The notes under the pieces are model-generated. The model ran no database searches and was not told the origin of the DNA. It saw only the letters and a list, made by a program, of their open reading frames with translations. The position numbers and the translations under genes were made by a program. Shown here one piece after another: positions 10,742 through 58,831 of a stretch of DNA of 64,000 nucleotides; the first letter of the stretch is position 1, and each line of letters opens with the position of its first letter. The DNA lies in the NCBI GenBank assembly GCA_964387885.1, contig CAYLYZ010000012.1, forward strand, positions 6,576 through 70,575, in the 5' to 3' direction. This DNA comes from an uncultured bacterium (GTDB lineage Bacteria; Electryoneota; AABM5-125-24; Hatepunaeales; Hatepunaeaceae).

Positions 10742-13700
10742 ATGTTTGTTCACATCAACCCCATTCTCGCACTGCTAACCCTGACGATATTTGTTCAAAT
10801 CTCAAACCTCTATGCGTCCAGCATGGTGGAGGTAGCACTGAGAGATCCGGGTGATCTCGAAATATTGCTGCGAGGTGGATTCGATGTGACATACGTTTCT
10901 CATGGGCGGATGGCTGATGTTGTTATCCATGATGAAGATGAGCTTGAACGCCTTGGAGGGACAGGTCTCCGTTACCTGATCTCACAGCCAAATCTTGAGC
11001 AATATTTTATCGATAGAAACAGACCCGGCAGGGATCCGATGGGTGGATATCGGACACTTGCCGAGATAGAAGCGGAATTGGAGGATATGCATGCTGATTT
11101 TCCCGAAATAATATCCGAACCGATTTCGATAGGCGAGACGATTGAAGGCAGAAATATCTGGGCTGTAAAGATATCCGACTTTCCGGAAGAAGATCAGGAT
11201 GAGCCTGAAGTACTTTTTGTATCTCTTCTCCATGCTCGCGAAGCAATTACCCAGGCTGCATTGATGGAGGTAATGCACATCTTGCTGGAAGGTTATAATC
11301 AGGATGAGAGATTGACCAGATTGGTCGATGAAAGGGAGATTTGGTTCATACCGTGTTTTAACCCTGATGGCTACGCTTATAATGAGGAAATTAATCCTGA
11401 TGGTGGTGGGATGTGGCGTAAGAACAGGCGTGAGAATGAAGATGGATCAATGGGTGTTGATCTTAACAGGAATTGGGGTTTTGAGTGGGGCAGGGATAAC
11501 CTCGGTTCAGATCCTGACCCGGACTCCAATACCTATCGAGGAACAGAACCTTTTTCTGAGCCTGAGACCCAGGCTGGTCGGGAGTTTATGAATGAGCGAA
11601 ACTTCACCGTTTCTGTCTTCTTTCATGCGTATGGCAATCTGTGCCTTATCCCACCTGCCTATGATTATGTGCACGTTCCGCATCGAGGTGTTTGCATGGC
11701 TCTTGGTGAGAAAATGACGGTCGAGAGTACTTATCTTGTAGGAACCGGGTGGGAGATCATTTATCTGACGAATGGTGATTCCGACGATTGGATATATGGT
11801 TCTGATGAACACGAACTGATATTGCCATTCACTATCGAGATTGGCAGCAGACGGGATCACTTCTGGCCACCTCAGGATCGAGTGCAACCCTTGATAGATG
11901 AGAACATTGAATCAATTCTGACTGCAATCGAATTCTGCGATAATCCTAACCGGGCATTGCCACCGATACCACCGGATAACGTCGGAGTTGACATTGAAAA
12001 TGACAGGGAAATCTCAGTATTCTGGGATATACCTGAGGATGAGGATAATCCTCCTGTAAGTTTTGATATTATGGCTCGAATTCCCGGTGATCCCTATTTT
12101 GATGACATTTCAGATAACGAGGGAGATTGGGAGCTTTTTGAAGCCTCAAGATCACGATTCAATCCACATAGCGCTCCCGATTGTTTCAGAATGGAAGTAA
12201 GACCTGATTTCTCGCTAATAACAACAAGTTCCGAATTCATTGCCCCAGAAAGGATTGAAGCCTGGATGAGACTCGATCTCTCCTTTGATAACAATCTTGC
12301 AGTTGAGGTTTCTGAAAACGGATATGACTGGTTTGCACTGTCGGGTAGAGAGACTCAGGATATTATCAGGGATGAGTATAATCATGGTCCGGGATTGAAG
12401 AGAATTGATACAGATGATGGTTGGGAGCGATTCTGGTGGGATCTTGGAGACTGGGAGGGTCTGCAGGTTAAGCTCAGGTTCCGGCATTATCATTTCCGGA
12501 GTGCCGGACGCAATGACAAAATCTATATCGATGACATCGGTCCGCTTCCAGGTGTCGAATGGGAAGAGGTCATTGCGGAAAACATTGAAGATGATTCATG
12601 GATGGGTGAAATCGGACAAAGAGCCCGATTCGTTGATTTCTACGTCCGCGGCCACGATGCTGAAGGCGATGTCTCTTTCTGGAGCTTGCCTGAGCAGGTT
12701 GAATTTGATATGCCTTCATTTGATCTCCTCATAAACCAGGGCTGGTCGATGATCAGTGCTCCGATATTGCCGGTGGATTTGAATGTTAGTAACATTTTCA
12801 GTGAATTAGTTGAAAGAGAATTACTCATCATAATGAAAGATGGAAATGGACGTTTTTATGCTCCACAATTTGGATTCAATCAACTTGGTGATTGGGAACC
12901 TACACAAGGATACTGGATAAATCTCACCGAACAATTCGAGTTGGAATTGATTGGAGAGAGGATTGCAGTAGATACACCAATCCAACTTCACCAGAACTGG
13001 AATATGGTGGGATATTTACCTGATCAGGAATTACCAGCTCCGGAGGCGCTTGTTTCTCTTGAGGAAACGCTTCTCTTTGCCAAGGATGATAATGGCAGAT
13101 TCTGGTCGATTGAATTTGGATTTAATAATATGCCCGAATTTAGACCTGGTGAAGGTTATCTGATAAAATTAAGCGAAGCAGATGAATTGATCTACCCAGG
13201 GGAGAATGTAGCCATGACTCCTCGTGATCCCTTTGAAAATTATCAGGAGTCAGGGTTCCGTCCGCCAAGTCCGGATAACCACAGTCTAATATTGTTGATA
13301 AGAGGTCAAATCCCAGACGGGGAGATAATTGCAAGAGATACAGAATCTCAAATTGCCGGTGTCGCAGATGTCGAAAATGATCAGGTGAGAGTGGGAATAG
13401 CGGTATGGGGGGAGGTAGAACCTGATACTGAAGGATATGTGATCGGTGAAGAGTTTGATTTGTACTGGAGACCGAATGCGGGTTCTACAGAATTTCCCTT
13501 AGTATTAAGCTTGAATAAGGGTGACGAAACATGGCGACTTAACGGCTTTTCAATATTTGAGGCAGAGTATGAAATCAGTGATATTCAACCTCAAGGATTC
13601 AAACTTCACTCGGCATACCCAAATCCATTCAATAGTATAATTACCTTCTCTTACAGTGTATTTGAGCAAACAGATGTAGTATTAGAAATATTTAATTCAG

Positions 13701-13873
13701 GTGGTAGACTTGTCGATAAGATTCAAAATGGTTCTTTAATTCCGGGTTCTTACCAAATTGATTGGAGTGGAGAGGCATTTCCTTCCGGTGTCTATATTGC
13801 GCGAATGGATACAAAAGGATATATTACCAGCCAGAGAACAAATAATCAGATAAAAATGTTGCTAATTCGATAA
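10742..13873 (+). CDS. secreted M14 zinc carboxypeptidase fused to tandem Trp-rich modules and a T9SS CTD
   Basis: Signal peptide present. M14 motifs include HAREAIT, NPDGY, NRNW and EPET. Then two ~80-aa repeats (GWSMIS...MKDGNGRFYAPQFGF...) shared with the 17315 and 55292 genes, and a C-terminal YPNPFNS T9SS domain. Confidence 0.85.
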   Translation: MFVHINPILALLTLTIFVQISNLYASSMVEVALRDPGDLEILLRGGFDVTYVSHGRMADVVIHDEDELERLGGTGLRYLISQPNLEQYFIDRNRPGRDPMGGYRTLAEIEAELEDMHADFPEIISEPISIGETIEGRNIWAVKISDFPEEDQDEPEVLFVSLLHAREAITQAALMEVMHILLEGYNQDERLTRLVDEREIWFIPCFNPDGYAYNEEINPDGGGMWRKNRRENEDGSMGVDLNRNWGFEWGRDNLGSDPDPDSNTYRGTEPFSEPETQAGREFMNERNFTVSVFFHAYGNLCLIPPAYDYVHVPHRGVCMALGEKMTVESTYLVGTGWEIIYLTNGDSDDWIYGSDEHELILPFTIEIGSRRDHFWPPQDRVQPLIDENIESILTAIEFCDNPNRALPPIPPDNVGVDIENDREISVFWDIPEDEDNPPVSFDIMARIPGDPYFDDISDNEGDWELFEASRSRFNPHSAPDCFRMEVRPDFSLITTSSEFIAPERIEAWMRLDLSFDNNLAVEVSENGYDWFALSGRETQDIIRDEYNHGPGLKRIDTDDGWERFWWDLGDWEGLQVKLRFRHYHFRSAGRNDKIYIDDIGPLPGVEWEEVIAENIEDDSWMGEIGQRARFVDFYVRGHDAEGDVSFWSLPEQVEFDMPSFDLLINQGWSMISAPILPVDLNVSNIFSELVERELLIIMKDGNGRFYAPQFGFNQLGDWEPTQGYWINLTEQFELELIGERIAVDTPIQLHQNWNMVGYLPDQELPAPEALVSLEETLLFAKDDNGRFWSIEFGFNNMPEFRPGEGYLIKLSEADELIYPGENVAMTPRDPFENYQESGFRPPSPDNHSLILLIRGQIPDGEIIARDTESQIAGVADVENDQVRVGIAVWGEVEPDTEGYVIGEEFDLYWRPNAGSTEFPLVLSLNKGDETWRLNGFSIFEAEYEISDIQPQGFKLHSAYPNPFNSIITFSYSVFEQTDVVLEIFNSGGRLVDKIQNGSLIPGSYQIDWSGEAFPSGVYIARMDTKGYITSQRTNNQIKMLLIR

Positions 13874-13883
13874 CAAGAAACGC

Positions 13884-16577
13884 GTGTGTAAATTTACTTC
13901 AGCCATTGCATTCTACCTGTTGTACTGTTGTATTTGTACTCCCATCAGTGCGGAATCGCGAGAAATTCGAATACCGGTTAAGAAAGTAGATACCTTCCCC
14001 ATCCTTCAACCACCGGATTTGGATACATCCCTGAAAAGTAATCCTAACGGACTTGTCAGAGTTAAGCCCGTTACTCCTCAGTTCACACTTGTACTCTCCG
14101 GAGGGGGATTAAAAGGTCTGGCGCATATCGGAGTTTTGCAGTCTCTAACCGAAGCTGGCTTAGTACCCTATGGAATAGCTGCTGTATCATCCGGATCTTT
14201 GATTGGTGGACTATATGCAGGTGGTTTTACAACTGATGAAATTCTTCATCGACTGCGACTGTTAGAACCTGCCAGCCTGATGCTTGACAAACCGGAGCGT
14301 CGAAGTATGTTACTCGCACGTAAACAGGACCTGTCGAGGCACATTATTGAGCTCAGGTTATCAGATGATTTAACTCCAATCCTGCCTGGTGCAATATCCC
14401 CCGGACAAAGACTTTATCAACGACTTTTAGAACTGACATCTGATCTCCCATACAGGTTTGTCAGCGATTGGAGTGAATTGCCGACGAAAATACTCATTCA
14501 GGCTACTGATCTTTGTACTGGAACCGGAGTTGTATTTAAAAATGGCGACATGACGCCGGCTATCCGTAGTTCGATGACAGTTCCTCTTCTTTTCGATCCG
14601 TTTGTCATAGATACTCTGAAACTGATTGATGGTGGAATTACATCAAATATTCCGGTTGATCTTGCACGCGAAATGTTAGATGGAGTAGTTGTAGCGGTAG
14701 ATGTATCAGCAGAATTAAATAGATTCAAAACTCCACCTCAACCCTGGCAAATTGTTGATCAGGTCACAACGATACTTGAGCGGGAGACAAACCGGAAATC
14801 ACGTGCTGAAGCAGATATCTTAGTTATCCCCAATATAATAAACTCTCCCGAAGCCTCAGAGGATTATTTCCAGGTGATTCAAGCGGGACGAGACGCAATG
14901 GATGACTTATTGCAAGATCTAAGAGAACTTCTCGAGTCTCAGGAGGATGAAAAGGATCAAACATCATTCTACATTAAGCATGTTTTAGTTCAGGATGTAC
15001 CGGGTTATGAATATACTGTTCCTGAGTCGTGGACTAATGTAGATGTGGAAATTTTAGAGATAAAGCGTTTTCTGGTTGAGTTGCTGAACTCTGGTGAAGT
15101 AGAGCACTGCTGGGCAGAGTATATTGAAGAAAGTCAATCGCTTCTGTTGAAGATTGAACAAACTCCGATTCTCAATGAGGTGGTTTTTAAAGGCAATTTA
15201 TCAATTGTAGACTCGCTGTTACATTTAAGTTTTTCAGATCAGATCGGGAACAGACTTAATTATGATCAAATAAAAGTTGGTGTTGATAATATTCTTCGAA
15301 TCTATCGGTCGTCCGGATATGCCGTTGCTGGAATCAAGAGCGCGAATCTGAATAGAAATTCCGGAATTTTAACTTTAGCAATTGATGAGGGTAATCTCTG
15401 TTGTGTTGAGTTCAAGGGTTTGAAAAAGGTTCCACTTGGAGCGATTACACGTGAAGTTCCGTTAAAGGAATCCGAACCGGTTAACAGTTACGCTATCCAG
15501 AAAGCGACATCCGCACTCTATAATACCGGGCTATTCAGGAACATAAATCCTGAATTGGTCTATGATCCGGAGGGTAGCGGGAAATGGCATGTTGTTTTTC
15601 ACGTTCAGGAACATATTTCACCACCGATACGGCTCGGGCTGGCTTATCAATCCCAACATCGAACAAGGGGTTTCGGAGAATTAACCTGGCCAGGACCGTT
15701 TAACTACGCGGGGCGCCTCATATTCTACACATCGGTAGGTGAGATCGACACGGAGCATCGAATTGCATATAAAATGGAAATGGGAAATGAACTCTCGGTG
15801 CTGCATAATTTTATTTTTGGATATTCAAGACAATACCGATATCCCTATGATCAGGATCATGAACGGCTTCGCGGTGAAAGATTTGAGGAATCCCGGTGGG
15901 GTGGACTGATTGAGGTCGGAGCACAGGCTGAAAGCTGGGGATTGCTGGCGTTTACTGCACGGATGGAGAGTCATGATAATTATTACGAGACAGAGACAGA
16001 ACATTATCAGCTTTCGGCAATCGGCCTAAAACTCGGGCTCGATAACCTTGATCGTTTTCCATATCCGAACGAGGGAATACAGTTAAAATCGAAATTTGAG
16101 ACTTCAGGCAAATTTATTGGTTCGGATGTAGATTTCTATAAGTTCACAAGCTCAATTGAGACGTATTATCAACTTATCCCCAGATACACTGTTGGAATGA
16201 GATTTATCGGGCGGACGGCGGACAGGACAACACCCCGCGATGAGCGGTTCAGGTTAGGCGGTATACATGAGTTCCCGGGTCTAAATCTGGATGAGAAAGA
16301 GGGCATTATTCAGATGACTGGGGGTATCGATCTTCGCTTTGATCTCCTCAGCCGCGCATTATCTGACACCTATATCGGAATCAGGTCTGATATTGGCGGT
16401 AGTTGGAGCGATCCAGCCGCCCAGATTGTTAAAGATGATTGGATGCGCTCAGTAGCAGTATATATTGCTTTAGACACAGTATTAGGTCCGATTCACCTGC
16501 AGTGGGGGCACCTGTTCCCGAGCGCGACGGTAAGAAAGCAGGACATTATTTTTATTCAAGCGGGAAGTACTTTTTAG
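13884..16577 (+). CDS. patatin-like phospholipase fused to POTRA plus Omp85-family beta-barrel (PlpD-like, type Vd secretion)
   Basis: GTG start with a signal peptide. Patatin oxyanion hole GGGLKG and nucleophile elbow AVSSG, then a DGG segment. The C-terminal barrel ends ...IQAGSTF. Confidence 0.7.
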   Translation: MCKFTSAIAFYLLYCCICTPISAESREIRIPVKKVDTFPILQPPDLDTSLKSNPNGLVRVKPVTPQFTLVLSGGGLKGLAHIGVLQSLTEAGLVPYGIAAVSSGSLIGGLYAGGFTTDEILHRLRLLEPASLMLDKPERRSMLLARKQDLSRHIIELRLSDDLTPILPGAISPGQRLYQRLLELTSDLPYRFVSDWSELPTKILIQATDLCTGTGVVFKNGDMTPAIRSSMTVPLLFDPFVIDTLKLIDGGITSNIPVDLAREMLDGVVVAVDVSAELNRFKTPPQPWQIVDQVTTILERETNRKSRAEADILVIPNIINSPEASEDYFQVIQAGRDAMDDLLQDLRELLESQEDEKDQTSFYIKHVLVQDVPGYEYTVPESWTNVDVEILEIKRFLVELLNSGEVEHCWAEYIEESQSLLLKIEQTPILNEVVFKGNLSIVDSLLHLSFSDQIGNRLNYDQIKVGVDNILRIYRSSGYAVAGIKSANLNRNSGILTLAIDEGNLCCVEFKGLKKVPLGAITREVPLKESEPVNSYAIQKATSALYNTGLFRNINPELVYDPEGSGKWHVVFHVQEHISPPIRLGLAYQSQHRTRGFGELTWPGPFNYAGRLIFYTSVGEIDTEHRIAYKMEMGNELSVLHNFIFGYSRQYRYPYDQDHERLRGERFEESRWGGLIEVGAQAESWGLLAFTARMESHDNYYETETEHYQLSAIGLKLGLDNLDRFPYPNEGIQLKSKFETSGKFIGSDVDFYKFTSSIETYYQLIPRYTVGMRFIGRTADRTTPRDERFRLGGIHEFPGLNLDEKEGIIQMTGGIDLRFDLLSRALSDTYIGIRSDIGGSWSDPAAQIVKDDWMRSVAVYIALDTVLGPIHLQWGHLFPSATVRKQDIIFIQAGSTF

Positions 16578-17314: not shown

Positions 17315-20300
17315 ATGCAAAGAACCTCACTATATAACCTAATCTGCATCTTAGCGATAATCCTTACCTCCTTCCCAATTTGTGCTTCAGGAGAGATTTC
17401 CATAAATCCGGCAGGAATAGCCGTTCAAGCGGCTAATGAAGAGGTTACGGAAACTGTTTTCTCCGTTCACAACAACTCTGAAACCGATTATAATTACAAC
17501 GTTTCCTTTAACATCGTTAATTTCCAACCTGTTGAGGATGAAGAAGAACGTCGAGGTCCGGTTCGAGATGATCCCGGTGAGATAATCAGGGAATATGATG
17601 TGCCCTACCGCAACACTGTTGGTATGGCATGGGATGATGAGAATGGCTGGATGTGGGGACTCGCCTGGTCAGATACGCGACTATATGCACTTGATCCTGA
17701 AAACGGAGACATTTTATTTAACGGAGCATGTCCCAGATCGACACTGAGTATGTTTTACAATGATGGTTTGCTCTATATCGGTGGTTACAATAATAATCCC
17801 AGCGTTATTTACCGCTATGACACTCAGGGCAGACAAGTTAATAATTTCAGGGTTCCGCGAAACTTAACCTGGTCTCACATTGGGGGAGATGACCGGTATA
17901 TTTATGTCGTGCAGTATCCTAACGCAGGTGGGCAGGGTGAGGTCTATGTTTTAGACAGTGAAAATAATTATCAGGAGATCGCTGCTATTGACTGCAGTGA
18001 GTGGATTGAGGATCAGACCTATGGAGTTGAGGCTATACATTCACATCGTGAAAACTGGCTCTGGCTGAGTGACAGGGAATCTTTGTATCAGTTCAGAGTC
18101 GATGAAGAGTGGAATGCGGAACTTGTAAGACAGTTTGAGACTGTTGAAAGTGGTCATACCGGACTCGCACACGACGGAGAAAATTTATGGCGAGGAACAT
18201 ACGACGGTGAAACACGGATCTGGTATGTAATTGATGATGGTGTTCCGGAGAGATTAAACGTCGGGATTGAACCTGATGCCGGTGTCGTCGAAGCAAATGG
18301 TGTCCGGGATATTGCGGTAACTATCGCACCGGAGAATAGCGAATCCGGAGTTTATAATGGATCTGTTTCGATTGAATTATGGGAGGATGTGGAGAATCCG
18401 GAAATTACAGAAATCGATTTTTCGATGGTCGTCTCGCTTGAAACTCCGGTCGCAAATATCGTAGGGACAATAACGGATGCTGCAACAGGAGAGGTCTTAG
18501 AAGGAGCAAGAATTGGTCTTGGTGAGTATGCTTATTACCGGTTATCGGATGATGAGGGTGTTTATGCAATGAATGATCTGCCTCGGGGAGTTTATAACCT
18601 GACATTGCTCGCACCGGATTACCTGACCTATACCGAAGAGGTTGATATCTCAGATGTCGAAGAGGTCGAAATTGACCATGCATTTCTTCACTCCAGATGT
18701 ACACCTGATCCGGATGAGATTTTTACCGAACTTGCCCTGGATTCTGAAACGGAGCTTTCATTAGATATTACAAATGGGGGTAACGGACCACTCACATATT
18801 CAGTAAGTAAACACCTTCTCGGTGAGGCCGATGCTGCGCCCTGGACATTAAGGCAATCATTTCAAGTGGGAGAATTATTAGAAGACAGCAATATTTATGC
18901 AACCGCATTTATTAATGATCGGTATTATATCGCAGGTGGTAACGATAATGATCCGGTGATCTATATACTCAACCGAGATGGAGAATTGACCGGAACATTC
19001 GCTCAGCCAGGTGAATCCAGGCGGGGGATTAAGGACATGACTTATGATGGTGAATTGATCTGGGCGCCAGTTGAGAATACAGTTTATGGGATCAGTCCAG
19101 ATGGAGAAGTTCAGGCTTCCTTTGACGCTCCAAATAATCCAACAACTGTTATAGCCTGGGATGCCGACCGGGAATGCCTGTGGCTGGGAAGTACAACGCG
19201 AAATCCTGTCGGGTATGACCGAGAGGGGAACCGTCTCGAAAACCTCGAGGTTGATCGATCAGACCTCAGAATATACGGGATGTCTTACTGGCAGGAGGAT
19301 CCGGATAACTCACCGCTATACCTCTATAATCGAGAACGGGAGACAAACCGGCAAATCGTTTATAAGGTTAACATCGAGGAGGATGACACAACGTTCGTCG
19401 CCTATCTTGATCCTGAGGGAGGAGGGAGTACTCAGGGGTGTTACATAACCAATCAGGTCGATAATTTGAGCTGGGTGATGCTGACAATTGCCAGCGTATC
19501 ACCGAACGACGGCGGCGACAGGCTTAATATATGGCAGGTTGCGAACAATACGAGCTGGTTCAACATCGAACCTGCCCAGGGGATAATCGAAGCTGAAAAC
19601 ACTCAGGAATTCCGCGTTACCCTCAACTCTACAGGATTGATCCCGGACGAATACTCCGGAGAATTCGCTTTTAACCATGATGGAATAGGTGGATTAACAA
19701 GCATCCCGGTGACTCTCACTGTTGGTGATGGACCTCGTCAGGCAGATCAGCGGATTCCGCTGAGAAGAGGCTGGAATATGATATCGGCTCACCTTGAACC
19801 GGACGATCCCGATGTGCGAGTAATTGTTCGCACACTCGTCGAGAACGAATCATTCATAATGATGAAAAACGGTTCCGGGCAGTTCTACAGCCTCCAGTTC
19901 AACTTTAATAACATCCCGGGGTGGAATGTCGAAGAGGGTTACTGGATGAAAATGGCTGAGGCGGATGAACTTGTTATGAGTGGTATGACAGTCGAATGGA
20001 ATCAACCGATACCACTCTCGCAGGGCTGGCAGATGATCAGCTACTATCCGACACAACCGGTGGATGCAGTAATTGCACTGTCAGGCTTAGGTGACCTTCT
20101 ATTAATCGCAAAAGATCAACAGGGCAGGTTTTACGCTCCCCCATTTGGCTTCAGCAATATGGGAGATATGGAACCGGGTCGGGGATATCAGGTGAAACTC
20201 TCCGAGGATGCGGAATTGGTCTATCGATTGCAGGAAGAGGAAGAACTGGCGGATTTTTCCGATAATTCAAATCCTGTTCATTTTCCAACTCCGCCTGTGA

Positions 20301-48613: not shown

Positions 48614-48769
48614 TTAATGCGTTACTAAGCTTCCCTTCTTGTTAGGAAATTAAAGAATAAACGTCAGGATCAAGTATCCTACAGAAATTGCAATGGCTAC
48701 AAACAGCGCGGTTTTATAGCCGGGAACTGCTTCGTGCTCAGTATTGTTATTTTCTTCTGTCACGGTAAC

Positions 48770-50251
48770 CTATCCCCCTGTGTAAGTTTGAACAGCGAGC
48801 TTTGCCAGATTCAAAAACGGCTGTGGGTAAAAGAACAGAAAAACTGAAACCACAGCTGTGAAAACGAGAGGACCTACACACCAGAAGGGAGCCTCCTCAA
48901 TCTTGCGGTCAAACTGAGCTTCTTCATCCGTACAGAAAAAAGCCCTGTATACAATTGGCAGGAAATATGCCGCGTTCAACAGTGTACTTGACAGCAGTAT
49001 AAACAACATCAGTGGCTGATCCGCCTGGAGAGTTCCAAGCAGTATATACCACTTGCTCAGGAATCCACCGGTTGGCGGAAATCCTATCACGCTTAAGGAA
49101 CCGATAAAGAACGCTATCATTGTCACAGGCATCCGTCTACCAAGTCCGACCATCTGGCTGAGGTATTTATGTCCAGTTGCGACAAATATCGCTCCTGCAC
49201 AGAAAAACAGAGTGATCTTTCCGAATGCATGCATCAGAATGTGCAGCATCCCTCCCGTCATTCCCTGTTTTGATAGCAGAGCTGCACCAAGCACTATGTA
49301 TGACAACTGCCCAATTGTTGAGAATGCGAGACGGCGTTTCAAACTGTCCTGAGACAGAGCAACGAGAGATCCTGCTAATATTGTAAATGCTGCCACCCAA
49401 CATAGCGCTGTTCCAAGTTCAAACATTTGCAGGTTATTCACTCCAAATATACCCGTCACCACTCTGAAGATAGAAAATACACCAACCTTGACAACTGCAA
49501 CTGCGTGTAATAGTGAGCTCACCGGAGTTGGCGCAACCATCGCAGCTGGAAGCCATGGATGGAAGGGCATTACCGCTGCTTTTGCGAATCCGAAGATGAA
49601 CATAAAAAATAGAACCGACATCAAGCCCTTAGACATCCCAGCCGAGAGTATCCCGGAATTGGAAAACTCAAGGGTTCCGGTAATGTTGTATATTATCAAC
49701 ATCGCAGGAAGCACCAGTCCGATTGACGATCCGAGGATGAATGTCAGGTATTTCCTTCCGGAAGCTCGGGCTTCAGCATCCTGATGATGTGTGACTAACG
49801 GGAATGTAGCCAGCGACAATATCTCATAGAACAGATATAATGTGAACAGATTGGCAGCAAACGCAACCCCGATAGTCCCGGATAATGCAAGGGCGAAGAA
49901 ACAGTAATATCTTGTCTGGCTGTGCTCTTTTAAACCGCGCATGTAGCCGATTGAGTATCCAGTGGTGACTATCCATAATGTCGAAGATACCAGGGCAAAC
50001 AGGAGCCCCATTGCATCAACCCGGAATTTGAGCGCAACACCGGCAACAACCTCGACTAACTGGTATTCGATAACAGATCCCTTCAGGACCAACGGTACCA
50101 TTGAACCGACTATTACCAGCTTCACAATACCCGCGAGGAATGACCAGCCTTCGCGAACGTTAGGGTGTTTTCGGGAGAGTAATATCGGGACTACTACAAG
50201 CATAGAAGTCAGGACTGCCAGAAATGGTTTTATGGATGTTACTGTATCCAT
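48770..50251 (-). CDS. Mrp antiporter subunit D-like (NuoM/N family), copy 2
   Basis: 493 aa antiporter-like subunit. Confidence 0.75.
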   Translation of the reverse strand: MDTVTSIKPFLAVLTSMLVVVPILLSRKHPNVREGWSFLAGIVKLVIVGSMVPLVLKGSVIEYQLVEVVAGVALKFRVDAMGLLFALVSSTLWIVTTGYSIGYMRGLKEHSQTRYYCFFALALSGTIGVAFAANLFTLYLFYEILSLATFPLVTHHQDAEARASGRKYLTFILGSSIGLVLPAMLIIYNITGTLEFSNSGILSAGMSKGLMSVLFFMFIFGFAKAAVMPFHPWLPAAMVAPTPVSSLLHAVAVVKVGVFSIFRVVTGIFGVNNLQMFELGTALCWVAAFTILAGSLVALSQDSLKRRLAFSTIGQLSYIVLGAALLSKQGMTGGMLHILMHAFGKITLFFCAGAIFVATGHKYLSQMVGLGRRMPVTMIAFFIGSLSVIGFPPTGGFLSKWYILLGTLQADQPLMLFILLSSTLLNAAYFLPIVYRAFFCTDEEAQFDRKIEEAPFWCVGPLVFTAVVSVFLFFYPQPFLNLAKLAVQTYTGG

Positions 50252-50274
50252 TTATGTTCTGTTTTGCTTCCTTT

Positions 50275-50402
50275 AGTAGGGCGGGATCTTATCCCGCCGT
50301 AATGGCTATCATATCTTGTCGGGTTAAGAACCCGACCTACGTGACTTATCCCGCTGTTTTACCACCATGTTCATTATTTGTCGGAATAAGATTCCGACCT
50401 AC
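50275..50402. repeat. REP family 2, 1.5 units between the two mrpD-like genes
   Basis: GTAGGGCGGGATCTTATCCCGCC ... GTCGGGTTAAGAACCCGACCTAC ... GTCGGAATAAGATTCCGACCTAC. Confidence 0.8.
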
Positions 50403-51880
50403 ATTACAGGCACCGCATACTGAATAACATTCGTCACAATATTATTCGTGTACAATCCGATCATAATTAGTGCTATTGCTACTACAACCAACGGTATTAA
50501 CATAACCGCTGGAGCTTCCGAAACTTTCTCATCAGCATGCTCATGGCTTTCAGTTTCATGCCTGAAATATCCTATTTCGATTATCCGGAAGAACAGCACT
50601 GCGTTTATTAGACTGGAAAGGATCAACGCTGCCATGAACTCCCACCTGCCAGCTTCTATAGCGCCCTGAATCAGGTACCATTTACTGAAAAAACCACATG
50701 TCGGAGGAACTCCTATCATTGATAGTGCTCCAACGATAAAAGCTCCCATTGTAACCGGCATTTTGCGGAAAAGTCCATGGAAATCGGCAAGTTGGTGTCG
50801 TTGCAGTTTGAATATTACGATCCCGGCTACCAGGAATAGGCACAACGTCATTAGTGCGTCATTCAGGATGTGTAAAATCGCACCTGTGATCCCGATTGTA
50901 TTACCAAGCCAGACTCCTCCAACCATATACCCGACCTCAGAAACTATCAGGAATGTCAGCATCTTCCTGAAATCACGCTGAGCAAGCGCTTGCAGCGATC
51001 CCCCTATTATTGCAATAACTGCACACCATACAACAGCAGTTTGCCAGGCGAAATTTCCGAATGAAAACTCCGCTGAATAAACCGAGAACATAATCCGGAT
51101 CATTATGTACACGGACACCTTAGTCATCAATGGAGCGATCAGGCATATTGAAGCTGATGGAGCATGTGTATAGGCATTCGGCAGCCAGCCATGCGCCGGG
51201 AAAAATGCCATTTTGATCCAAATGCCGACAATAATTAGAATAAAACCGACCAGCACAGCACTATTGCCGGATATTGAGGGCAGAATCCTGTAAATATCTG
51301 CCATATTAAGAGAACCGGTTGTGATGTACAAATGTCCGACTCCCAGCAAATAAAGACTTGCACCGACAGTGCCGAGGATCAGGTAATTAAAAGTCGATAT
51401 AAGTGCCCGGTCTTTTCCGAGAGCGAGCAGTGCATAAGTTGCAAGAGCAGAAATCTCAAGCAGTACGTAGAGGTTGAATGCATCACCGGTTATTGTAATT
51501 CCCAGCAAACCAGTGGTCAGAAGCAAGTAAAGGATGTAAAACTGCGGGATCTTTTCTGGAAGTTCACGTTCGACAATCAGCTTTGAGTATATAACGCTGA
51601 CGAGACTTACAAACGTGATGACCACCAGCACCATTGCGTTAAGATGGTCAACAACGTACTCAATCCCGAACGGTGGCATCCATGCACCAAGCCTGTAGCT
51701 GATTTCTCCATCACTAATTACTTTCAGTAAGACAATAACGGATTGATGGAAGGAAAGTGCAATCGCAATTAACGTAATCGGGAAACTGAGTTTTCGGTGC
51801 AGCAAACCGCCCAGGCCGGCAAAGAAAGCTGCCAGCAATGGGATGATGACCAGTAGTATGGGTGCCTGAAACTCAGTCAT
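50399..51880 (-). CDS. Mrp antiporter subunit D (NuoM/N family), copy 1
   Basis: 493 aa. Overlaps the mrpC-like gene by 8 nt. Confidence 0.8.
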   Translation of the reverse strand: MTEFQAPILLVIIPLLAAFFAGLGGLLHRKLSFPITLIAIALSFHQSVIVLLKVISDGEISYRLGAWMPPFGIEYVVDHLNAMVLVVITFVSLVSVIYSKLIVERELPEKIPQFYILYLLLTTGLLGITITGDAFNLYVLLEISALATYALLALGKDRALISTFNYLILGTVGASLYLLGVGHLYITTGSLNMADIYRILPSISGNSAVLVGFILIIVGIWIKMAFFPAHGWLPNAYTHAPSASICLIAPLMTKVSVYIMIRIMFSVYSAEFSFGNFAWQTAVVWCAVIAIIGGSLQALAQRDFRKMLTFLIVSEVGYMVGGVWLGNTIGITGAILHILNDALMTLCLFLVAGIVIFKLQRHQLADFHGLFRKMPVTMGAFIVGALSMIGVPPTCGFFSKWYLIQGAIEAGRWEFMAALILSSLINAVLFFRIIEIGYFRHETESHEHADEKVSEAPAVMLIPLVVVAIALIMIGLYTNNIVTNVIQYAVPVM

Positions 51881-52253
51881 CGGTTAGCTGCTCGTTAATT
51901 TCGTCTTCCTCAATCGTTCCGTACTTTGCATATATTTTCGCAATTATTGCCAGCGCAACACCAAGCGTACTGACAGAAACGACAATAGCTGTCAGCATCA
52001 AAACATGGGGCAGCGGATTGATATATGCGGTCGGATCGATGTGGTGAGCAGCGCCGTGACCGTGCTCTATTATCGGGATGGTCGCCCCGCGTTTCGCTCC
52101 TATAGAGACATAGAAGAGGATTATTGCCGCCTGGAAAATACTGACACCGATCATCTTCTTAACGAGGTTGTTCTTTGCAATCATTGCGTAGAAACCGACC
52201 ATCATTATCAGTATATAGAACCAGTAGTTGTATTTGGCGATTATAAATTCCAT
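51873..52253 (-). CDS. Mrp antiporter subunit C (NuoK-like)
   Basis: 126 aa with 3 TM helices. Classic MnhC N-terminus ...YNYWFYILIMMVGFYAMI. Confidence 0.8.
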   Translation of the reverse strand: MEFIIAKYNYWFYILIMMVGFYAMIAKNNLVKKMIGVSIFQAAIILFYVSIGAKRGATIPIIEHGHGAAHHIDPTAYINPLPHVLMLTAIVVSVSTLGVALAIIAKIYAKYGTIEEDEINEQLTDD

Positions 52254-52256
52254 GCT

Positions 52257-53015
52257 CTAAAGTCCACGCTCGTATTTACCATCGGATGACAGGTTGACGT
52301 AAATCAGAATCAGGTTTGCCATCACCGCAATTGCTACACCAATTTCAACGCCGAGTATCCCGTGCGAGCGCGCCATAATGTTGTCCGTTGCCGGGAGGAT
52401 AGCTGATAATGCGCTGTAATCCAGGAAGTTTCCCTCGAGCATAATGCAAATTACACCGATTCCGGAGTAGATTAGAACACCAAGAATGGCTAACACAAGG
52501 GTTGTTTTCTCGCGCATTCTTTTGAGAACCATCTTAAGGTCAAATCCAATCGCCAACAGTATGAAACTCGCACCAAGAATAACTCCGCCCTGGAAGCCTC
52601 CGCCGGGGCTGTGATGACCGTGGGCAATGACATATAGGGCATACAGCTGCATGAATGGAGCGAGCAGTCTGCAGATTGTCTTTACAATCAGGGTTTGATG
52701 TGGCAGCTCTTCGATAGTGTCTTCTGGTTTCTCATGGAGGTCTTTGCGACGGGTTCGCCTGAGAAGGGTATAGACTGCAATTCCCGCAGCAAAAACAACG
52801 GCAGTCTCAAACATCGTATCAAAACCGCGATAATCGGCAAGAACGGAGGTTACCAGATTTGGAACGGATGTCTCTTCAATTGATTCTGTGATAAAGTGAG
52901 GTGACAGATGCGTACTCGCCGGAGCCTGCGGATCAGCCCAGTCCGGGAAACCATTCACTGCATAAAGGAGCAGCAAGCCAGTAGCAATCACAACGATCAG
53001 ACCGATAATCTTCAA
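52257..53015 (-). CDS. Mrp antiporter subunit B
   Basis: 252 aa, MnhB-like. Confidence 0.7.
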   Translation of the reverse strand: MKIIGLIVVIATGLLLLYAVNGFPDWADPQAPASTHLSPHFITESIEETSVPNLVTSVLADYRGFDTMFETAVVFAAGIAVYTLLRRTRRKDLHEKPEDTIEELPHQTLIVKTICRLLAPFMQLYALYVIAHGHHSPGGGFQGGVILGASFILLAIGFDLKMVLKRMREKTTLVLAILGVLIYSGIGVICIMLEGNFLDYSALSAILPATDNIMARSHGILGVEIGVAIAVMANLILIYVNLSSDGKYERGL

Positions 53016-53257
53016 TCTTTCGTCCTCCGGGTAGTCCTGAAAACAGCAGCGATGAAGAATATTGTACTGACTCCTGCACCGACGGCAGCTTCAGTGAATC
53101 CAACATCAACCGCTCCCATCTCAGCCCATAGCAAGCACATCAGGAAACTGAATGTCCCAAAAATGATCGATGCACTCATCAAGTCTTTTGCATTGATGGA
53201 TGCGATGGCAGTGATAGCAACCAAAATCAGTATTATTAGATCAAACTGCCAGATCAT
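53012..53257 (-). CDS. MrpB N-terminal-like small subunit (DUF4040-like)
   Basis: Start trimmed to the Met preceded by a GGGGAGGG RBS. The longer six-frame ORF would run into REP sequence. Confidence 0.6.
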   Translation of the reverse strand: MIWQFDLIILILVAITAIASINAKDLMSASIIFGTFSFLMCLLWAEMGAVDVGFTEAAVGAGVSTIFFIAAVFRTTRRTKD

Positions 53258-53399
53258 CTTTATTTTCCCTCCCCTTCGTCGTTCCTGCGAACGCAGGAAC
53301 CCAGAGAAGTCTGATGAGAATCCGACATACCCTCTTGTCGCATGGGAATTTGTTTTTCCGTCAGGCGGGGACACCTGACGGCACTTCCTGATTTGAAAT

Positions 53400-53575
53400 A
53401 AATCCCATAACCAGTAGGATAGGCATTCCTGCCTGTCCATCCCGCTAAGCGGGATTCAGAGAGCAGTAGTATTGGATTATTTTGAATCCGCTTTGCAGCG
53501 GATGGTCGAACAGGAATGTCCAACCTACTGGGACTTAGCGCAATGGATTGTCGGATAGGAATGTTCGACCTACTG
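53400..53575. repeat. cluster of REP-like hairpins inside the mrp operon, including family 1/family 2 hybrids (GGTCGAACAGGAATGTCCAACCTAC; GTCGGATAGGAATGTTCGACCTAC)
   Basis: ACAGGAATGT cores are combined with ...CGACCTAC tails. An additional hairpin ATCCGCTTTGCAGCGGAT is present. Confidence 0.7.
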
Positions 53576-53588
53576 AAACTATGGAGAC

Positions 53589-53954
53589 TCATTCCTTTTC
53601 CCCCCCCTCCTCATCCTGCTTATCCTCCGGATTATCTTCTGATTCCTTCGCCCAAGGTTTCACTCCCGCATCATATCCCGCTTCAATGATGTGGTGAGTA
53701 GCTGCCGGACTTGCCATAAAAATAAAGACCAGTATAAATAATATCTTAATACTGACAAGTACAGCACCCACAGAGAGGTGATGCAGATTATACAATGCCA
53801 GCCCTGAGAGCACAAGCATTGAAGACATGGTATCCCCCTTACCAGCAGCTTGCATCCTTGAGTAAAAATCGGGAAAACGTAATATGCCTATTGTTGTCGC
53901 GAAGAAGAAGAGTAGCCCAACGCAAATCAGACCTGCTGAGATTATGTCAATCAT
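53589..53954 (-). CDS. Mrp antiporter subunit G
   Basis: MnhG-like N-terminus with GLLFFFATTIGILRFPDFYSRMQA. Confidence 0.8.
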   Translation of the reverse strand: MIDIISAGLICVGLLFFFATTIGILRFPDFYSRMQAAGKGDTMSSMLVLSGLALYNLHHLSVGAVLVSIKILFILVFIFMASPAATHHIIEAGYDAGVKPWAKESEDNPEDKQDEEGGEKE

Positions 53955-54271
53955 TCACCACTCTCCACATGTTCATGATCTACTGACTTGCGCCATCCGC
54001 CGGGGATGAAATTTTTCCGAGCCTGGAAATACCTGGCAGCTGCAAGCGTGGCGATGAAGTTCAAAAGTGCGTAAGCCAGTGCAATATCGACGAACATGTC
54101 TACACGCCTGAAAATAGTGCCGATTATTATCAGTAGAACAGCTGTCTTGGTTCCGATGACATTGATCGCCATAATCCGGTCGATTGCAGTTGGCCCGACA
54201 ATCCCGCGATAGAGAGTGAGGAACATCAGAACGAGAATTCCAACTCCGATATAGATGAAGAAAGTCTCCAT
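53951..54271 (-). CDS. Mrp antiporter subunit F
   Basis: 106 aa, MnhF-like, with a 4-bp overlap onto mrpG. Confidence 0.75.
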   Translation of the reverse strand: METFFIYIGVGILVLMFLTLYRGIVGPTAIDRIMAINVIGTKTAVLLIIIGTIFRRVDMFVDIALAYALLNFIATLAAARYFQARKNFIPGGWRKSVDHEHVESGE

Positions 54272-54273
54272 GA

Positions 54274-54783
54274 TTATCCGGTTTCCTCAAAGATATGAGC
54301 GATTTTTTTCTCCATCTTGTCCTTGATCAGCTCGGTGAATTTTGGGTGCAAAGTATGCACATAGAACTCATCTTCGATGATCCTGATAGTGATTGTTCCG
54401 GGAGTCAGTGTTATCGAGTTGCCAAGTGTGACGAGTGCAATATCTTTTTTGAGAGTTGACTTAAAATAGTATATCTGTGGATCAATCTCACGAATCATTC
54501 GCGGGTGCAATGCATAATATGCAACACTCAGGTTAGAGAGGATAACCTCGTACAATAGCCAGGGGATATAGGCAATAAACCTGAATGCTTCAGGCAGTCT
54601 TCCCTTTTTAGTCTTATTCGAAAAAATGAGATCTCGAGAGAGGTGCGCGACCAGTAGGCAGGAGATTACGCCCAGTGATAAATGGAAAATATCAAACTTC
54701 CCGGACAGAAGTATCCAGAAAGCCATCATTATTATAAAGGTGTACAGAAAAGTCATCCTGCTCCGGTCTCGGTGTCCGAACAA
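54274..54783 (-). CDS. Mrp antiporter subunit E
   Basis: 169 aa, MnhE-like, and first gene of the cluster. Confidence 0.75.
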   Translation of the reverse strand: MFGHRDRSRMTFLYTFIIMMAFWILLSGKFDIFHLSLGVISCLLVAHLSRDLIFSNKTKKGRLPEAFRFIAYIPWLLYEVILSNLSVAYYALHPRMIREIDPQIYYFKSTLKKDIALVTLGNSITLTPGTITIRIIEDEFYVHTLHPKFTELIKDKMEKKIAHIFEETG

Positions 54784-55291: not shown

Positions 55292-58200
55292 ATGAACGTT
55301 TACAAAACTCGCCTTTTCTTAACACTTGTTTTTATCATTTTTTTGTTTGGATCAACCGTTACCGCTGAGATAAGTTTCGATCCGCACGGTTTCGGATTAA
55401 CTGTTGCTGAAAATGATCTCGCTGAAATCGAGCTTGAGGTTTCCAACAACTTTGAATTTGATGTGTCATTCGGTGTTTCCAGCAGTCTTGTCGATGAGGA
55501 CGGCATGATGGTTGGTCCTATGCGCGATGATCCGGGTGACCTGATCGATGAATTTGAACCACAGCAACTCGGTAATGTCAACCGACATGTTACCGGTATT
55601 GCGTGGGATGAGGGTAATGGCTGGATGTGGCTCTCTGAATCTGACAATGCTCGCGTTCAGGCTGTTGATCCGAATGATAACTATCGGATGGTTGGTCAGG
55701 TTAACATGCCGGAACCGGTTTCAGGACTCGGGTATTATGATGGTGTGTTTTACGGAGTTGGTTGGACGAATCACGCATGGTTGTTCAGGGTTGATGCCGA
55801 GGGCGATAATCTTGGGAATTTTAACCTTCAGGGGAGTGCAGGTGCCGTTGATTGTGGTGCAGAAGGTCTACTGTTTGCGATGGCTCAGCAGGTGATTTAC
55901 ATCTACGATATTGAAAATGACTATCAGCTACTTGGAAATTTCAGAAACTATGAAAACTTCCTGCAGGATGATGAGTTGGTGCAAAGCGTCTGCTGGGTTG
56001 ATGAGCATCCAAACGGGCAGCTCTGGTTGAACTCACGTGCCGGGAATGGTGACAACCATGCCTGGCAAGTTGCGGTTGATACGGATGAGTGGGCAGCAAC
56101 CGGACTTACACAAGAATTTATTACAGATGCACAGGATCAGCAGATGGGACATCCGCGTGACGGTATCGGTCATGACGGAGAGAATCTGTGGATAACACAC
56201 TGGCAGTCGCCGCGGATTAGAATCATTGACGATGGAGTTGCCGAAATCAGCATCCTCGAAATTGATCCGGAAGAGGGAGTCATCGCTGCTGAAGATCTCG
56301 AATTAATACTTATATCAGCCAATGCTGAAGGGGTTGAAGCCGGGGTCTATAACTTCCTTTTGTCGTTTGAGTTTGCTGAGGTTGATCAGGAAGAGTCGTT
56401 CGTAATTGAAATCTCTGCTGTTGTTTCGATTGCCAGCCCAACGTTTGATGTCTCCGGAACAGTTACTGACCCGGCAACAGGAGAAAATATTGAAGATGTT
56501 ACTGTTAACTTGGATCAGTACATCATGACCCGTCAAACAAATGGTGAAGGAGGATTCCTTTTCTCAGATCTCCCTCCTGATGAATATGAATTCAACTTTT
56601 CAGCACCAGGTTACTTACCGTTTACAACACGGGCTCTTGTTGGTGATGAGGGTGATCTCGATCTGGAAATTGAGCTGCTATTTGCCGAATGCGAAATCGA
56701 TCTTGATGAGGTTATTGAAGAACTGGGGATTGACGAGAACACTCAGGTCAACTTCAACGCTACAAATAACGGGACGGGGCCTTTGACTTATACGGTTGAT
56801 CGCAGGTTGCTCGGTGATGCAAATGCCGATCCGTGGACTTTGCGCACGTCTTTTGATGTCGGTGTGCAATTGGAGGATTCGCGCATTCAGGGTGCTGTTT
56901 ACATTAATGGAAATTACTTCGTGGCGGGTGCCCACAATTATGAACCAGCGATTTACATTCTGAACGGGGAAGGTGAGTTACTCGATCTGTTTATCCAGCC
57001 CGGTGAGAACAGATATGGCATGAAAGACATCGCCAGTGACGGTGAATTGATCTGGGGAGCGGTAAGAGATGTTATCTACGGATTAACACCGGACGGAGAA
57101 GTCGCTGTTAGTTTTGAATCTCCATACAGCCCGACGAACAATATGGCTTGGGATGGTGACCGCGAATTACTCTGGGTTGCTTCAACGACTGCCGGAATTA
57201 CCGGAGTTGACAGGGAAGGTAATGTTGTAGCGGAAGTCGATCGTCAGGGATTACGGATTTATGGACTGGCATATTACCCGGATGATCCTGATGGACATCA
57301 ACTTTATGTGTTCCATAAAGATGCTGATATTGGGAATAACATTGTCGATAAGATTGATATCGAGAACGATGAAGCTCAACATGTTGGAGTTTTAGAACCG
57401 GAAGCGGGAGGATCAGCTGCAGCAGCCTTCATTACAAATGAGTATGACGTTTATAGCTGGGTATTCATGGCAGTTGCCAATAACGGGGGAGAAGATCGGA
57501 TTGATATCTGGCAGATTGATGCCCGGAAAGACTGGATGGCAGTTGAACCGGCTGAGGGTGCTATCGAATCTGAAGGATCGCAGGAATTTGTGTTAACTCT
57601 CGATGCTACCGATTTACCGGCTGTCGTATTTGAAGGTGAGGTTGTTCTTGTGCATAATGGTCGGGGTGATGAAGTGTCTCTACCAATCACACTGACAGTT
57701 GGGGACGGAGGTGGTGAACAAGAACGAGTCATCGAGCATCATGATGGCTGGAACATGGTCTCGACGAATGTACAGCCGGATCCAAATGAAATTCCTGAAT
57801 TAACTGCAGGTCTGGTTGAAAACGATCTTCTACTTCTTATGAAAGATGGTGATGGGCGTTTTTACAGCCCTGAATTCGGATTCTGCAACATTCCGGGATG
57901 GAATGTTGCTGATGGATATCAGATCAAGATGGATGGAGCGGGTGAATTAGTTTTAACAGGTGAACCGGTTAATGCAGACGATCCGATCCAACTTGATATC
58001 GGGTGGTCAATGATCTCCTATTTCCCACGCGAGCCGGTAGATGCTGTTGTCGCGCTGTCAGGGATAGTTGAGCAGTTACTCATGGCAAAGGATGGAGATG
58101 GTCATTTCTATTCACCGGCTTTCGGATTCAGCAACATGGGTGATATGGCTGAGGGATTTGGTTATCAGGTAAAGATTACTGAGGATACTGAGCTTGTTTA

Positions 58201-58831
58201 CACAGTTCCTGAAGAAAATGAATTTGCTCGGTCACCCCATCGAGAAATCCCCGAAACTCCCTCCCATCCGAATACAGACACGAACATGAGTGTCTTGATT
58301 CTTGCTGATCAATTGGATGGACGGACAATTAAGATATTTGCGGAAGGTGAACTTGTCGGTTCCGGTGTTATCGAAAATGGAGTTTGTGGTATTGCAGTCT
58401 GGGGAGATGACTCAACAACAGATGAAACAGATGGAGTTGTTACTGGTGAAAACCTCACTCTGAAAATTGGAAAAAATCAGCCGGAATTTATTACCGTACT
58501 TGGGAAAGGGACTTATTCAACTGATGGATTCTGGGTAATACAGCTTTCCGCTGATTCAGCTATCCTGCTGGAATTTGGAATATCATCTGTTCACCCGAAT
58601 CCCTTCAACAGCGTTACCCGGTTGACATTCGGCTTGCCGGAAATGTCTGTTGTCACGGTTGCGGTTTACGACCTGACTGGTCGGATGGTTACGGAATTGG
58701 TCAGCCGGGAGATGAAAGCCGGGAATCACACCGTAGTATGGGATGCAAAGGATGCAACAACAGGCGTTTATATGGTCAGGATAAGGTCAGGAGTGCAAAG
58801 TGCGGTTGAGAAAATCGTATTGGTGAAGTGA
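55292..58831 (+). CDS. giant secreted protein, paralog of 17315..20878 (beta-propeller-like, CarbopepD_reg-like, tandem Trp-rich modules, T9SS CTD)
   Basis: GAGGAG RBS and a signal peptide. Modules GWNMVSTNVQP...MKDGDGRFYSPEFGF and GWSMISYFP...AKDGDGHFYSPAFGFSNMGDMAEGFGYQVKI. C-terminal HPNPFNSVTRLTFGLP. Confidence 0.8.
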   Translation: MNVYKTRLFLTLVFIIFLFGSTVTAEISFDPHGFGLTVAENDLAEIELEVSNNFEFDVSFGVSSSLVDEDGMMVGPMRDDPGDLIDEFEPQQLGNVNRHVTGIAWDEGNGWMWLSESDNARVQAVDPNDNYRMVGQVNMPEPVSGLGYYDGVFYGVGWTNHAWLFRVDAEGDNLGNFNLQGSAGAVDCGAEGLLFAMAQQVIYIYDIENDYQLLGNFRNYENFLQDDELVQSVCWVDEHPNGQLWLNSRAGNGDNHAWQVAVDTDEWAATGLTQEFITDAQDQQMGHPRDGIGHDGENLWITHWQSPRIRIIDDGVAEISILEIDPEEGVIAAEDLELILISANAEGVEAGVYNFLLSFEFAEVDQEESFVIEISAVVSIASPTFDVSGTVTDPATGENIEDVTVNLDQYIMTRQTNGEGGFLFSDLPPDEYEFNFSAPGYLPFTTRALVGDEGDLDLEIELLFAECEIDLDEVIEELGIDENTQVNFNATNNGTGPLTYTVDRRLLGDANADPWTLRTSFDVGVQLEDSRIQGAVYINGNYFVAGAHNYEPAIYILNGEGELLDLFIQPGENRYGMKDIASDGELIWGAVRDVIYGLTPDGEVAVSFESPYSPTNNMAWDGDRELLWVASTTAGITGVDREGNVVAEVDRQGLRIYGLAYYPDDPDGHQLYVFHKDADIGNNIVDKIDIENDEAQHVGVLEPEAGGSAAAAFITNEYDVYSWVFMAVANNGGEDRIDIWQIDARKDWMAVEPAEGAIESEGSQEFVLTLDATDLPAVVFEGEVVLVHNGRGDEVSLPITLTVGDGGGEQERVIEHHDGWNMVSTNVQPDPNEIPELTAGLVENDLLLLMKDGDGRFYSPEFGFCNIPGWNVADGYQIKMDGAGELVLTGEPVNADDPIQLDIGWSMISYFPREPVDAVVALSGIVEQLLMAKDGDGHFYSPAFGFSNMGDMAEGFGYQVKITEDTELVYTVPEENEFARSPHREIPETPSHPNTDTNMSVLILADQLDGRTIKIFAEGELVGSGVIENGVCGIAVWGDDSTTDETDGVVTGENLTLKIGKNQPEFITVLGKGTYSTDGFWVIQLSADSAILLEFGISSVHPNPFNSVTRLTFGLPEMSVVTVAVYDLTGRMVTELVSREMKAGNHTVVWDAKDATTGVYMVRIRSGVQSAVEKIVLVK

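Follow-up and report, generated by a model that had tools for sequence, protein, structure and literature searches.

An unannotated paired-repeat domain in three predicted type IX secretion cargo proteins of an uncultured Electryoneota bacterium and in thousands of other proteins

We analyzed a 64-kb stretch of DNA (contig CAYLYZ010000012.1, positions 6,576 to 70,575; hereafter the window) from an uncultured bacterium of the Electryoneota, in which three genes, called A, B, and C in their order along the window, encode proteins with a common C-terminal tail. The tail consists of two adjacent repeats of ~85 residues (together called the pair), a conserved segment of ~115 residues (called seg), and a type A C-terminal sorting domain (CTD) of a type IX secretion system (T9SS). 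At the other end of A, B, and C, hydrophobic stretches followed by LYA-SS, ICA-SG, and VTA-EI, respectively, were read as signal peptides by eye from the translations rather than taken from a predictor. Between these ends, protein A contains an M14 carboxypeptidase domain (PF00246 Peptidase_M14, residues 109-390, 215.9 bits, E 1e-63, 285 of 286 positions in Pfam), for which carboxypeptidase T (3qnv, E 2e-52) is the nearest solved relative and in which an HxxE motif (LHAREA), a second histidine (FHAYGN), and a glutamate (FTIEIG) were assigned catalytic roles by eye. In B and C, a variable N-terminal region comprising the first ~370 residues, without a family match, is followed by a CarboxypepD_reg domain, a WD40-like propeller, an Ig-like domain, and the tail; the propeller residues of B also match designed WRAP propellers (E 1e-5 to 1e-6). 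B and C lie 34 kb apart, not in tandem, and align over their full length with 41% identity (1204 alignment columns).

The original prediction, made from the letters of the window, described A, B, and C as three paralogous giant proteins with a shared Trp-rich module. Paralogy holds for the whole of B and C, whereas A has only its tail in common with them. The size was overstated, as the proteins have 1043 to 1187 residues, and "Trp-rich" is a generous term for repeats with one to four tryptophans and a combined Trp, Tyr, and Phe content of 11-12%. The propeller and CarboxypepD_reg domain expected upstream of the module in B and C are both present, but the CarboxypepD_reg domain precedes the propeller, and an Ig-like domain stands before the pair. 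The proposal of a portable cassette on differing N-terminal passengers is borne out by the M14 enzyme of A as compared with the CarboxypepD_reg domain and WD40-like propeller of B and C.

The common C-terminal cassette of A, B, and C is real, and its similarity is far beyond chance. The six 85-residue repeat units of the three proteins are 32-62% identical to one another. Among the 461 stop-to-stop open reading frames (ORFs) of at least 50 residues in the window, a hidden Markov model (HMM) made from the B and C repeats only recovered both repeats of A (E 3e-25 and 2e-24), an HMM made from A only recovered the repeats of B (both E 9e-23) and of C (E 3e-23 and 7e-19), and an HMM made from first repeats only recovered the second repeats (E about 1e-16); no ORF besides A, B, and C scored below E 0.4 with the repeat HMMs. 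Seg was recovered in each protein by its own HMM (E 5e-18 to 2e-45), and the CTD exceeded the curated cut-offs of both PF18962 (27 bits) and TIGR04183 (23 bits) in A, B, and C. In a BLASTP comparison, the C-terminal ~390 residues of A and B were 34% identical (E 2e-62). The predicted sharing of repeats, conserved segment, and CTD by the three genes thus withstands alignment statistics that are not circular (leave-out HMMs at 1e-16 to 1e-25). The boundaries that we found fall within about 30 nt of those estimated before, and the segment with CGIAVWGDD or VGIAVWGEV, put at ~120 residues in that estimate, lies between the repeats and the CTD as expected (Table 1).

Table 1. Positions of genes, domains, and related loci. 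Nucleotide positions are those of the window, except for the JABGPL01 arrays.
Feature	Nucleotides	Strand	Residues	Description
Gene A	10742-13873	+	1043 in all	signal peptide, M14 carboxypeptidase, MAM-like region (weak), pair, seg, CTD
A pair	12716-13225	+	659-828	repeat 1, 12716-12970 (residues 659-743); repeat 2, 12971-13225 (residues 744-828)
A seg	13256-13606	+		contains VGIAVWGEV; HMM from 119 relatives, E 5e-18
A CTD	13616-13870	+	959-1028 (Pfam match)	Por_Secre_tail; PF18962 30.6 bits, TIGR04183 27.5 bits
Gene B	17315-20878	+	1187 in all	signal peptide, variable N-terminal region, CarboxypepD_reg, WD40-like propeller, Ig-like, pair, seg, CTD
B CarboxypepD_reg			382-454	
B WD40-like propeller			about 524-656	match to WD40 repeat protein 2ymu (PDB), E 8.5e-12
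B Ig-like domain			731-793	weak; Ig-like/BACON_2-like
B pair	19745-20254	+	811-980	repeat 1, 19745-19999 (residues 811-895); repeat 2, 20000-20254 (residues 896-980); modeled sequence
B seg	20267-20629	+		contains CGIAVWGDD; seg HMM E 2e-45
B CTD	20639-20875	+		PF18962 38.9 bits, E 1e-9; TIGR04183 41.9 bits, E 7.5e-11
Gene C	55292-58831	+	1179 in all	full-length B paralog; CarboxypepD_reg E 5e-13
C pair	57722-58231	+	811-980	repeat 1, 57722-57976 (residues 811-895); repeat 2, 57977-58231 (residues 896-980)
C seg	58244-58585	+		contains CGIAVWGDD; seg HMM E 9e-41
C CTD	58589-58828	+		PF18962 37.8 bits, E 2e-9; TIGR04183 37.9 bits, E 1e-9
CTD cargo without pair or seg	5313-7166	-		FG-GAP repeats
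CTD cargo without pair or seg	25671-27872	+		LVIVD propeller
CTD cargo without pair or seg	29648-32098	+		right-handed beta-helix
JABGPL01 array, loci L003, L005, L013	JABGPL010000015.1, about 8.8-42.8 kb			
JABGPL01 array, loci L007, L011, L012	JABGPL010000005.1, about 56-76.8 kb			

The two repeats are the halves of one obligate, mainly beta extracellular domain of ~165 residues. To collect relatives, a single-repeat profile was run against 1.84 billion cluster representatives (clusters at 50% identity), and the 146 best new representatives were taken as a set of close relatives. Repeats in this set were always adjacent, with two in 138 proteins, four (2 + 2) in seven, and ten (5 x 2) in one. 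The two positions are clearly related (hhalign probability 99.8%, E 9e-30), and 346 of 354 repeats had their nearest counterpart in another protein at the same place within the pair. Repeats 1 and 2 are thus distinct position-specific lineages, which argues for an old duplication and for halves that are not interchangeable; the pair would have originated by an ancient internal duplication of an ~85-residue repeat. When residues 806-985 of B were modeled by AlphaFold2 with a 60-sequence alignment, a single compact unit was obtained with a predicted local distance difference test score (pLDDT) of 95.5 and a predicted template-modeling score (pTM) of 0.87, whereas the B tail without an alignment reached a pLDDT of only 39.5. 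Repeat 1 of the model has about seven strands and two short helices, and repeat 2 has slightly fewer strands and similar helices. The aromatic, glycine, and asparagine residues of a conserved P..F.N..W....GY motif fall in a long irregular loop of each repeat.

The domain libraries searched for known relatives were Pfam-A 2025, NCBIfam 20.0, and PHROGs v4, with CDD, Gene3D, and PANTHER outside the search. Searched against Pfam-A, neither the window proteins nor 16 further relatives matched over the pair, and a set of 60 diverse pair sequences stayed without a match even at E 10; NCBIfam, PHROGs, and sequence-profile searches of PDB sequences likewise gave none. An NCBIfam CbhB match on one related protein (P0188) was due to its fn3 domain. 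In a Foldseek comparison of the pair model with 350,542 PDB chains, the best E was 0.12 and template-modeling scores (TM-scores) were 0.25 or less. The sole significant structural neighbor was a BFVD model, A0A8D9C8P8 (E 4.6e-5, probability 1.00, query-normalized TM-score 0.55), a predicted structure from an uncultured marine phage with 12% identity and an unverified automatic label of "putative hemin binding protein"; this match indicates that Foldseek can detect the pair fold where it is present. Seg had no match in Pfam, NCBIfam, or PDB sequences, and an origin of seg as a diverged repeat was ruled out (hhalign probability 0.1%). A full-text literature search with motif strings (GWNLIS and variants) found no paper, and one on T9SS domains found nothing that describes the pair module. 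By comparison of sequences and models, the pair is undescribed in every library searched, as the original prediction had proposed in calling it no named domain, and neither profile nor structure searches returned a well-characterized family to which it might belong.

Far from being confined to the window, the single-repeat profile matched 9,542 cluster representatives at E ≤1e-3 and 5,341 at E ≤1e-10; a word-indexed homolog search with the same profile returned 3 fragments only. A genome scan, biased toward close relatives by its use of a narrow second-repeat alignment as the pattern, gave 49 loci, with a top identity to the window of 75%, in metagenome-assembled genomes (MAGs) labeled Calditrichaeota, Ca. 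Hatepunaea meridiana, Zixibacteria, KSB1, and Flavobacteriales. Of these, Ca. Hatepunaea meridiana, of the phylum Ca. Electryoneota in the Fibrobacteres-Chlorobi-Bacteroidetes (FCB) superphylum, is described as a degrader of proteins that has numerous secreted peptidases (PMC9324843). MAG JABGPL01 ("Calditrichaeota bacterium co234_bin30") has at least 31 genes with the pair-seg-CTD tail, including tandem arrays of 10 and 6 consecutive B/C-type paralogs of ~1170-1200 residues.

Architectures within the family vary widely. A tail of the size of seg plus CTD follows the pair in 116 of the 146 close representatives, and 26 end no more than 10 residues past repeat 2, with recurring endings such as ...LIWNVP; distant members mostly end at the pair and have no CTD. 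One protein of the pair-ending form (P0162, an M14 domain plus the pair, 681 residues) is encoded inside a 114-kb contig, where two like genes adjoin it and a gene for a beta-helix protein with a CTD lies close by. Because this gene is interior to its contig, the form is genuine and its proteins are complete. The pair can also have nothing before it but a signal peptide (in P0168 and in the products of four of five genes of a marine cluster, L050) or a lipobox (P0174, 191 residues, L061 5044-5619), and five internal pairs occur among PKD, LamG, and dockerin domains in a protein of 3424 residues. Seg is also found without the pair. Passengers that precede the pair include M14, C25, and S8 peptidases, beta-helices, LVIVD and FG-GAP propellers, LamG, alpha/beta hydrolase, cohesin, and fn3 domains. 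The partner domains of 44 further members include CarboxypepD_reg, beta-helix, LVIVD, C25, FG-GAP, PMP repeats, M14, S8, and LamG, and cohesin occurs in the distant members P0180 and P0183. The pair is, in short, an autonomous and portable extracellular two-repeat domain that varies in position and copy number on many unrelated passengers. The expectation that the module would be specific to this lineage fails, given the 9,542 matches, several FCB phyla, and a 62% GC contig that encodes Thr/Pro-rich linkers. The expectation that it would be specific to T9SS cargo fails as well, given the members that end at the pair, the stand-alone and lipoprotein forms, and the five internal pairs of the PKD/dockerin protein.

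Several of these loci have features of their own. The marine cluster (L050 653-6490, JGI 3300000983, GC 35%) consists of five consecutive genes for small secreted pair proteins of 171-321 residues, one of which has seg before the pair; it also includes a gene for a 733-residue protein that has seg three times but lacks the pair, and a PorZ-like gene lies nearby. On the 62% GC contig (L051 8001-11119, ENA ERZ24794666), two adjacent genes show the window's order reversed, with seg ahead of a terminal pair, and one of the products (697 residues) has a cohesin-like N-terminus (by eye), a Thr/Pro-rich linker of ~250 residues, seg, and a C-terminal pair. Directly upstream of the gene for P0099, a protein with an Ig-like domain and the pair but no CTD, lies an uncalled seg-plus-CTD ORF with neither a start codon nor a signal peptide (L055 888-1601 and L056 1408-2121), which is possibly the remnant of a rearranged pair-seg-CTD gene. 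The lipobox protein is encoded on a 6.2-kb contig (L061, JGI 3300010355) with small same-strand ORFs, an HTH_36 gene, and a phage- or plasmid-like look. This contig and the single BFVD fold match are hints that copies of the pair may reside on mobile elements, but searches for a phage link found none: two members compared by tblastn with 50,697 phage records gave no match, and two viral-contig scans and PHROGs were empty as well.

Conservation is uneven along proteins of the B/C type. Among 17 such paralogs, mean pairwise identity was 29% for the N-terminal ~340 residues, 60-63% from the propeller through the pair, 45% for seg, and 42% for the CTD, so that the pair is conserved as strongly as the propeller. 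The variable part corresponds to residues 30-370 of B and C and has no family match. A contrast of this kind would fit a diversifying distal tip on the conserved base of a surface protein, and the N-terminal ~340 residues of B and C could, to judge from these identities, be such a surface-exposed tip.

A type A CTD is present on six window ORFs in total, which implies that the organism has a T9SS; no gene for the T9SS machinery (PorK/L/M/N, Sov, PorU/V) lies within the window. Three of the six CTD genes lack both the pair and seg (Table 1), and the pair-seg tail is thus optional for CTD cargo here and not needed by the T9SS. The surrounding genes are ordinary chromosomal ones, among them Lon, patatin-POTRA-Omp85, tricorn protease, DNA polymerase III tau, TldD/PmbA, an Mrp antiporter operon, and LptF/G. 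Gene A is followed on the same strand, with the start 11 nt past its stop, by a gene for an 897-residue protein with patatin-like phospholipase, POTRA, and Omp85 domains (13884-16577, +), an architecture that resembles PlpD-like type Vd autotransporters; the spacing suggests co-transcription of the two genes. A NACHT/STAND NTPase gene (32350-34899, +, 849 residues) adjoins one for a tricorn-type protease (35040-38252, -, 1070 residues) with PD40 propellers, Tricorn C1, PDZ, and S41 domains. Just upstream of C is an Mrp/Mnh-type cation:proton antiporter operon (46609-54783, -) with three Proton_antipo_M subunits, MnhB, and MnhE. The locus of the distant relative P0019 (L053) likewise has Mrp-like genes, which is probably a coincidence; no recurrent neighbor was found in the loci around ten members.

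What might the pair do? Our preferred, if tentative, reading is that it serves as a portable non-catalytic binding module, which in this lineage is fused with seg and the CTD as a standard tail of predicted surface cargo. The signal peptide would direct each protein through Sec to the periplasm, and the CTD would direct its passage through the T9SS. The M14 carboxypeptidase of A and the propeller scaffolds of B and C would then be exposed on the cell. The conserved membrane-proximal part would be formed by the pair and seg, the latter a second unannotated, beta-rich domain, and the pair would hold or target the attached passenger at a surface. A binding module is suggested because copy number and position vary and because lipid-anchored or free stand-alone forms occur, whereas anchors and export signals behave otherwise and are not found in five internal copies or after a lipobox; these architectures favor binding over anchoring. 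What it binds would most likely be a polymer or a ligand on a surface, perhaps a glycan. Like carbohydrate-binding modules (CBMs) and PKD, PPC, and BACON domains, the pair is portable, occurs in varying copy number and position on unrelated catalytic domains, and is mixed with PKD, fn3, LamG, cohesin, and dockerin domains. Unlike them, it belongs to no such family in Pfam, and no carbohydrate-active enzymes were seen among its partners; related Ca. Electryoneota MAGs are described as degrading proteins and having few genes for polysaccharide breakdown (PMC9324843).

Several points weigh against a binding role. The argument for binding comes from architecture, and the searches found no likeness to a known binding module. 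The CTD already provides covalent surface attachment in T9SS cargo, which would make a second surface-binding function partly redundant. Finally, the strong acidity of the pair (pI about 4.1) is no guide to a ligand.

The main rival to a binding module, which we regard as somewhat unlikely, is a structural pedestal or secretion helper, in which the pair and seg would have no ligand of their own and would act as a stalk that spaces the passenger from the outer membrane, or would stabilize the CTD or present it to the T9SS. Such a role fits the order pair-seg-CTD, which is constant across 116 of the 146 close relatives and across the genes, at least 31, that carry the tail in a single MAG; it also fits the conservation of the propeller-to-pair region (60-63%) below a variable distal N-terminus (29%) in proteins of the B/C type. 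There is also a precedent in RgpB of P. gingivalis, where an Ig-like domain directly precedes the type A CTD of a secreted peptidase, much as the pair and seg do here, and where secretion is blocked by a point mutation that disrupts contact of the CTD with the domain before it (PMC11285876). In comparison with the RgpB type, however, the interval here is filled by two unannotated domains (pair ~165 residues, seg ~115) without a Pfam, NCBIfam, or PDB sequence match, and both domains also occur without a CTD and in the reverse order. A pedestal or helper is further disfavored by complete proteins that end at the pair, without a CTD, in T9SS-bearing genomes, by the pairs encoded on a 62% GC contig, by those with only a signal peptide or lipobox before them, by the five internal copies in one protein, and by the three CTD cargo genes of the window without a pair. 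We judge it improbable that the pair is instead a protein-protein assembly module, whose homo- or hetero-oligomerization would assemble the cargo as a coat on the surface or as a complex of several enzymes. Cohesin (P0180, P0183, and, by eye, the 697-residue L051 protein) and dockerin (P0019) co-occur with the pair, dozens of paralogs with the same tail are found per genome, in tandem arrays of up to 10 genes, and small pair-only proteins form arrays of their own (L050); yet no partner was found, no conserved partner gene emerged from the gene neighborhoods of six members, and cohesin or dockerin accompanies few members only.

Tandem-repeat modules are known as non-covalent envelope anchors. 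The GW modules of Listeria InlB and Ami (Pfam GW/SH3_8) are tandem modules of ~80 residues with a Gly-Trp dipeptide that stand at the C-terminal end of surface proteins and bind non-covalently, and SLH and CWB2 domains are fixed tandem arrays of three repeats that form a compact pseudo-symmetric unit common to many secreted enzymes of one organism. By analogy, the pair might bind a surface polymer of the producing cell, a role for which we see little prospect. In its favor, the pair is a tandem repeat of fixed number that folds as one pseudo-symmetric unit, its usual place is at the C-terminal end of diverse secreted enzymes, where its ~80-residue modules contain Gly-Trp, and proteins that end with it have no other recognized anchor. 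But the lipobox protein P0174 and the proteins with a CTD are anchored by other means, the presence of five internal copies in one protein is unlike an anchor, and sequence and fold show no likeness to GW, SLH, or CWB2 domains. The GW/SH3_8 HMM found nothing in A, B, and C at E up to 0.1 or in 60 diverse pairs at E up to 10, and the pair model had no PDB Foldseek match below E 0.1 even though SH3-like GW structures are in the PDB. The pair further differs from Listeria GW modules in having its Gly-Trp early in each repeat, within the second strand, exactly two repeats per unit, and Gram-negative FCB-group hosts, and from SLH and CWB2 in having two repeats rather than three, another secondary structure, and no HMM match. 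It is very improbable that the pair acts as a small enzyme or as an intramolecular chaperone or propeptide, like the pre-peptidase C-terminal domain. Frequent attachment to M14, C25, and S8 peptidases and a few near-invariant polar positions (K46, K128, S19, and N143) could be read in this way, but both repeats show the conserved positions in symmetric duplicate, most of them glycine, aromatic, or proline, a pattern rare in enzymes; attachment to non-enzymatic propellers, beta-helices, and adhesin-like proteins is equally frequent; and stand-alone copies have no passenger to fold.

A larger version of the binding-module reading can be drawn, although we consider it unlikely as a whole. In it, the pair would be a new fold and a very common unrecognized module, and the T9SS surface proteome of Ca. 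Electryoneota-like bacteria would be built mostly on the pair-seg-CTD tail, with a pedestal that binds a common component of the envelope, cargo arranged as a surface coat, and hypervariable N-terminal tips that diversify.

If the pair is a binding module of the kind we prefer, then a large family, with at least 9,500 clusters at 50% identity, has had no name, structure, or function in the databases searched. As its confident model matches nothing solved, the pair clearly merits a family entry of its own and a crystal structure. The three-part pair-seg-CTD tail would dominate the surface proteome predicted for poorly known FCB phyla, and it would offer a handle for cataloging FCB cargo and for testing the interval between passenger and CTD. 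No established concept is changed, since portable accessory domains on secreted enzymes are already familiar; the pair is a new family within that category of accessory domains of secreted proteins, with a striking expansion in a poorly known phylum.

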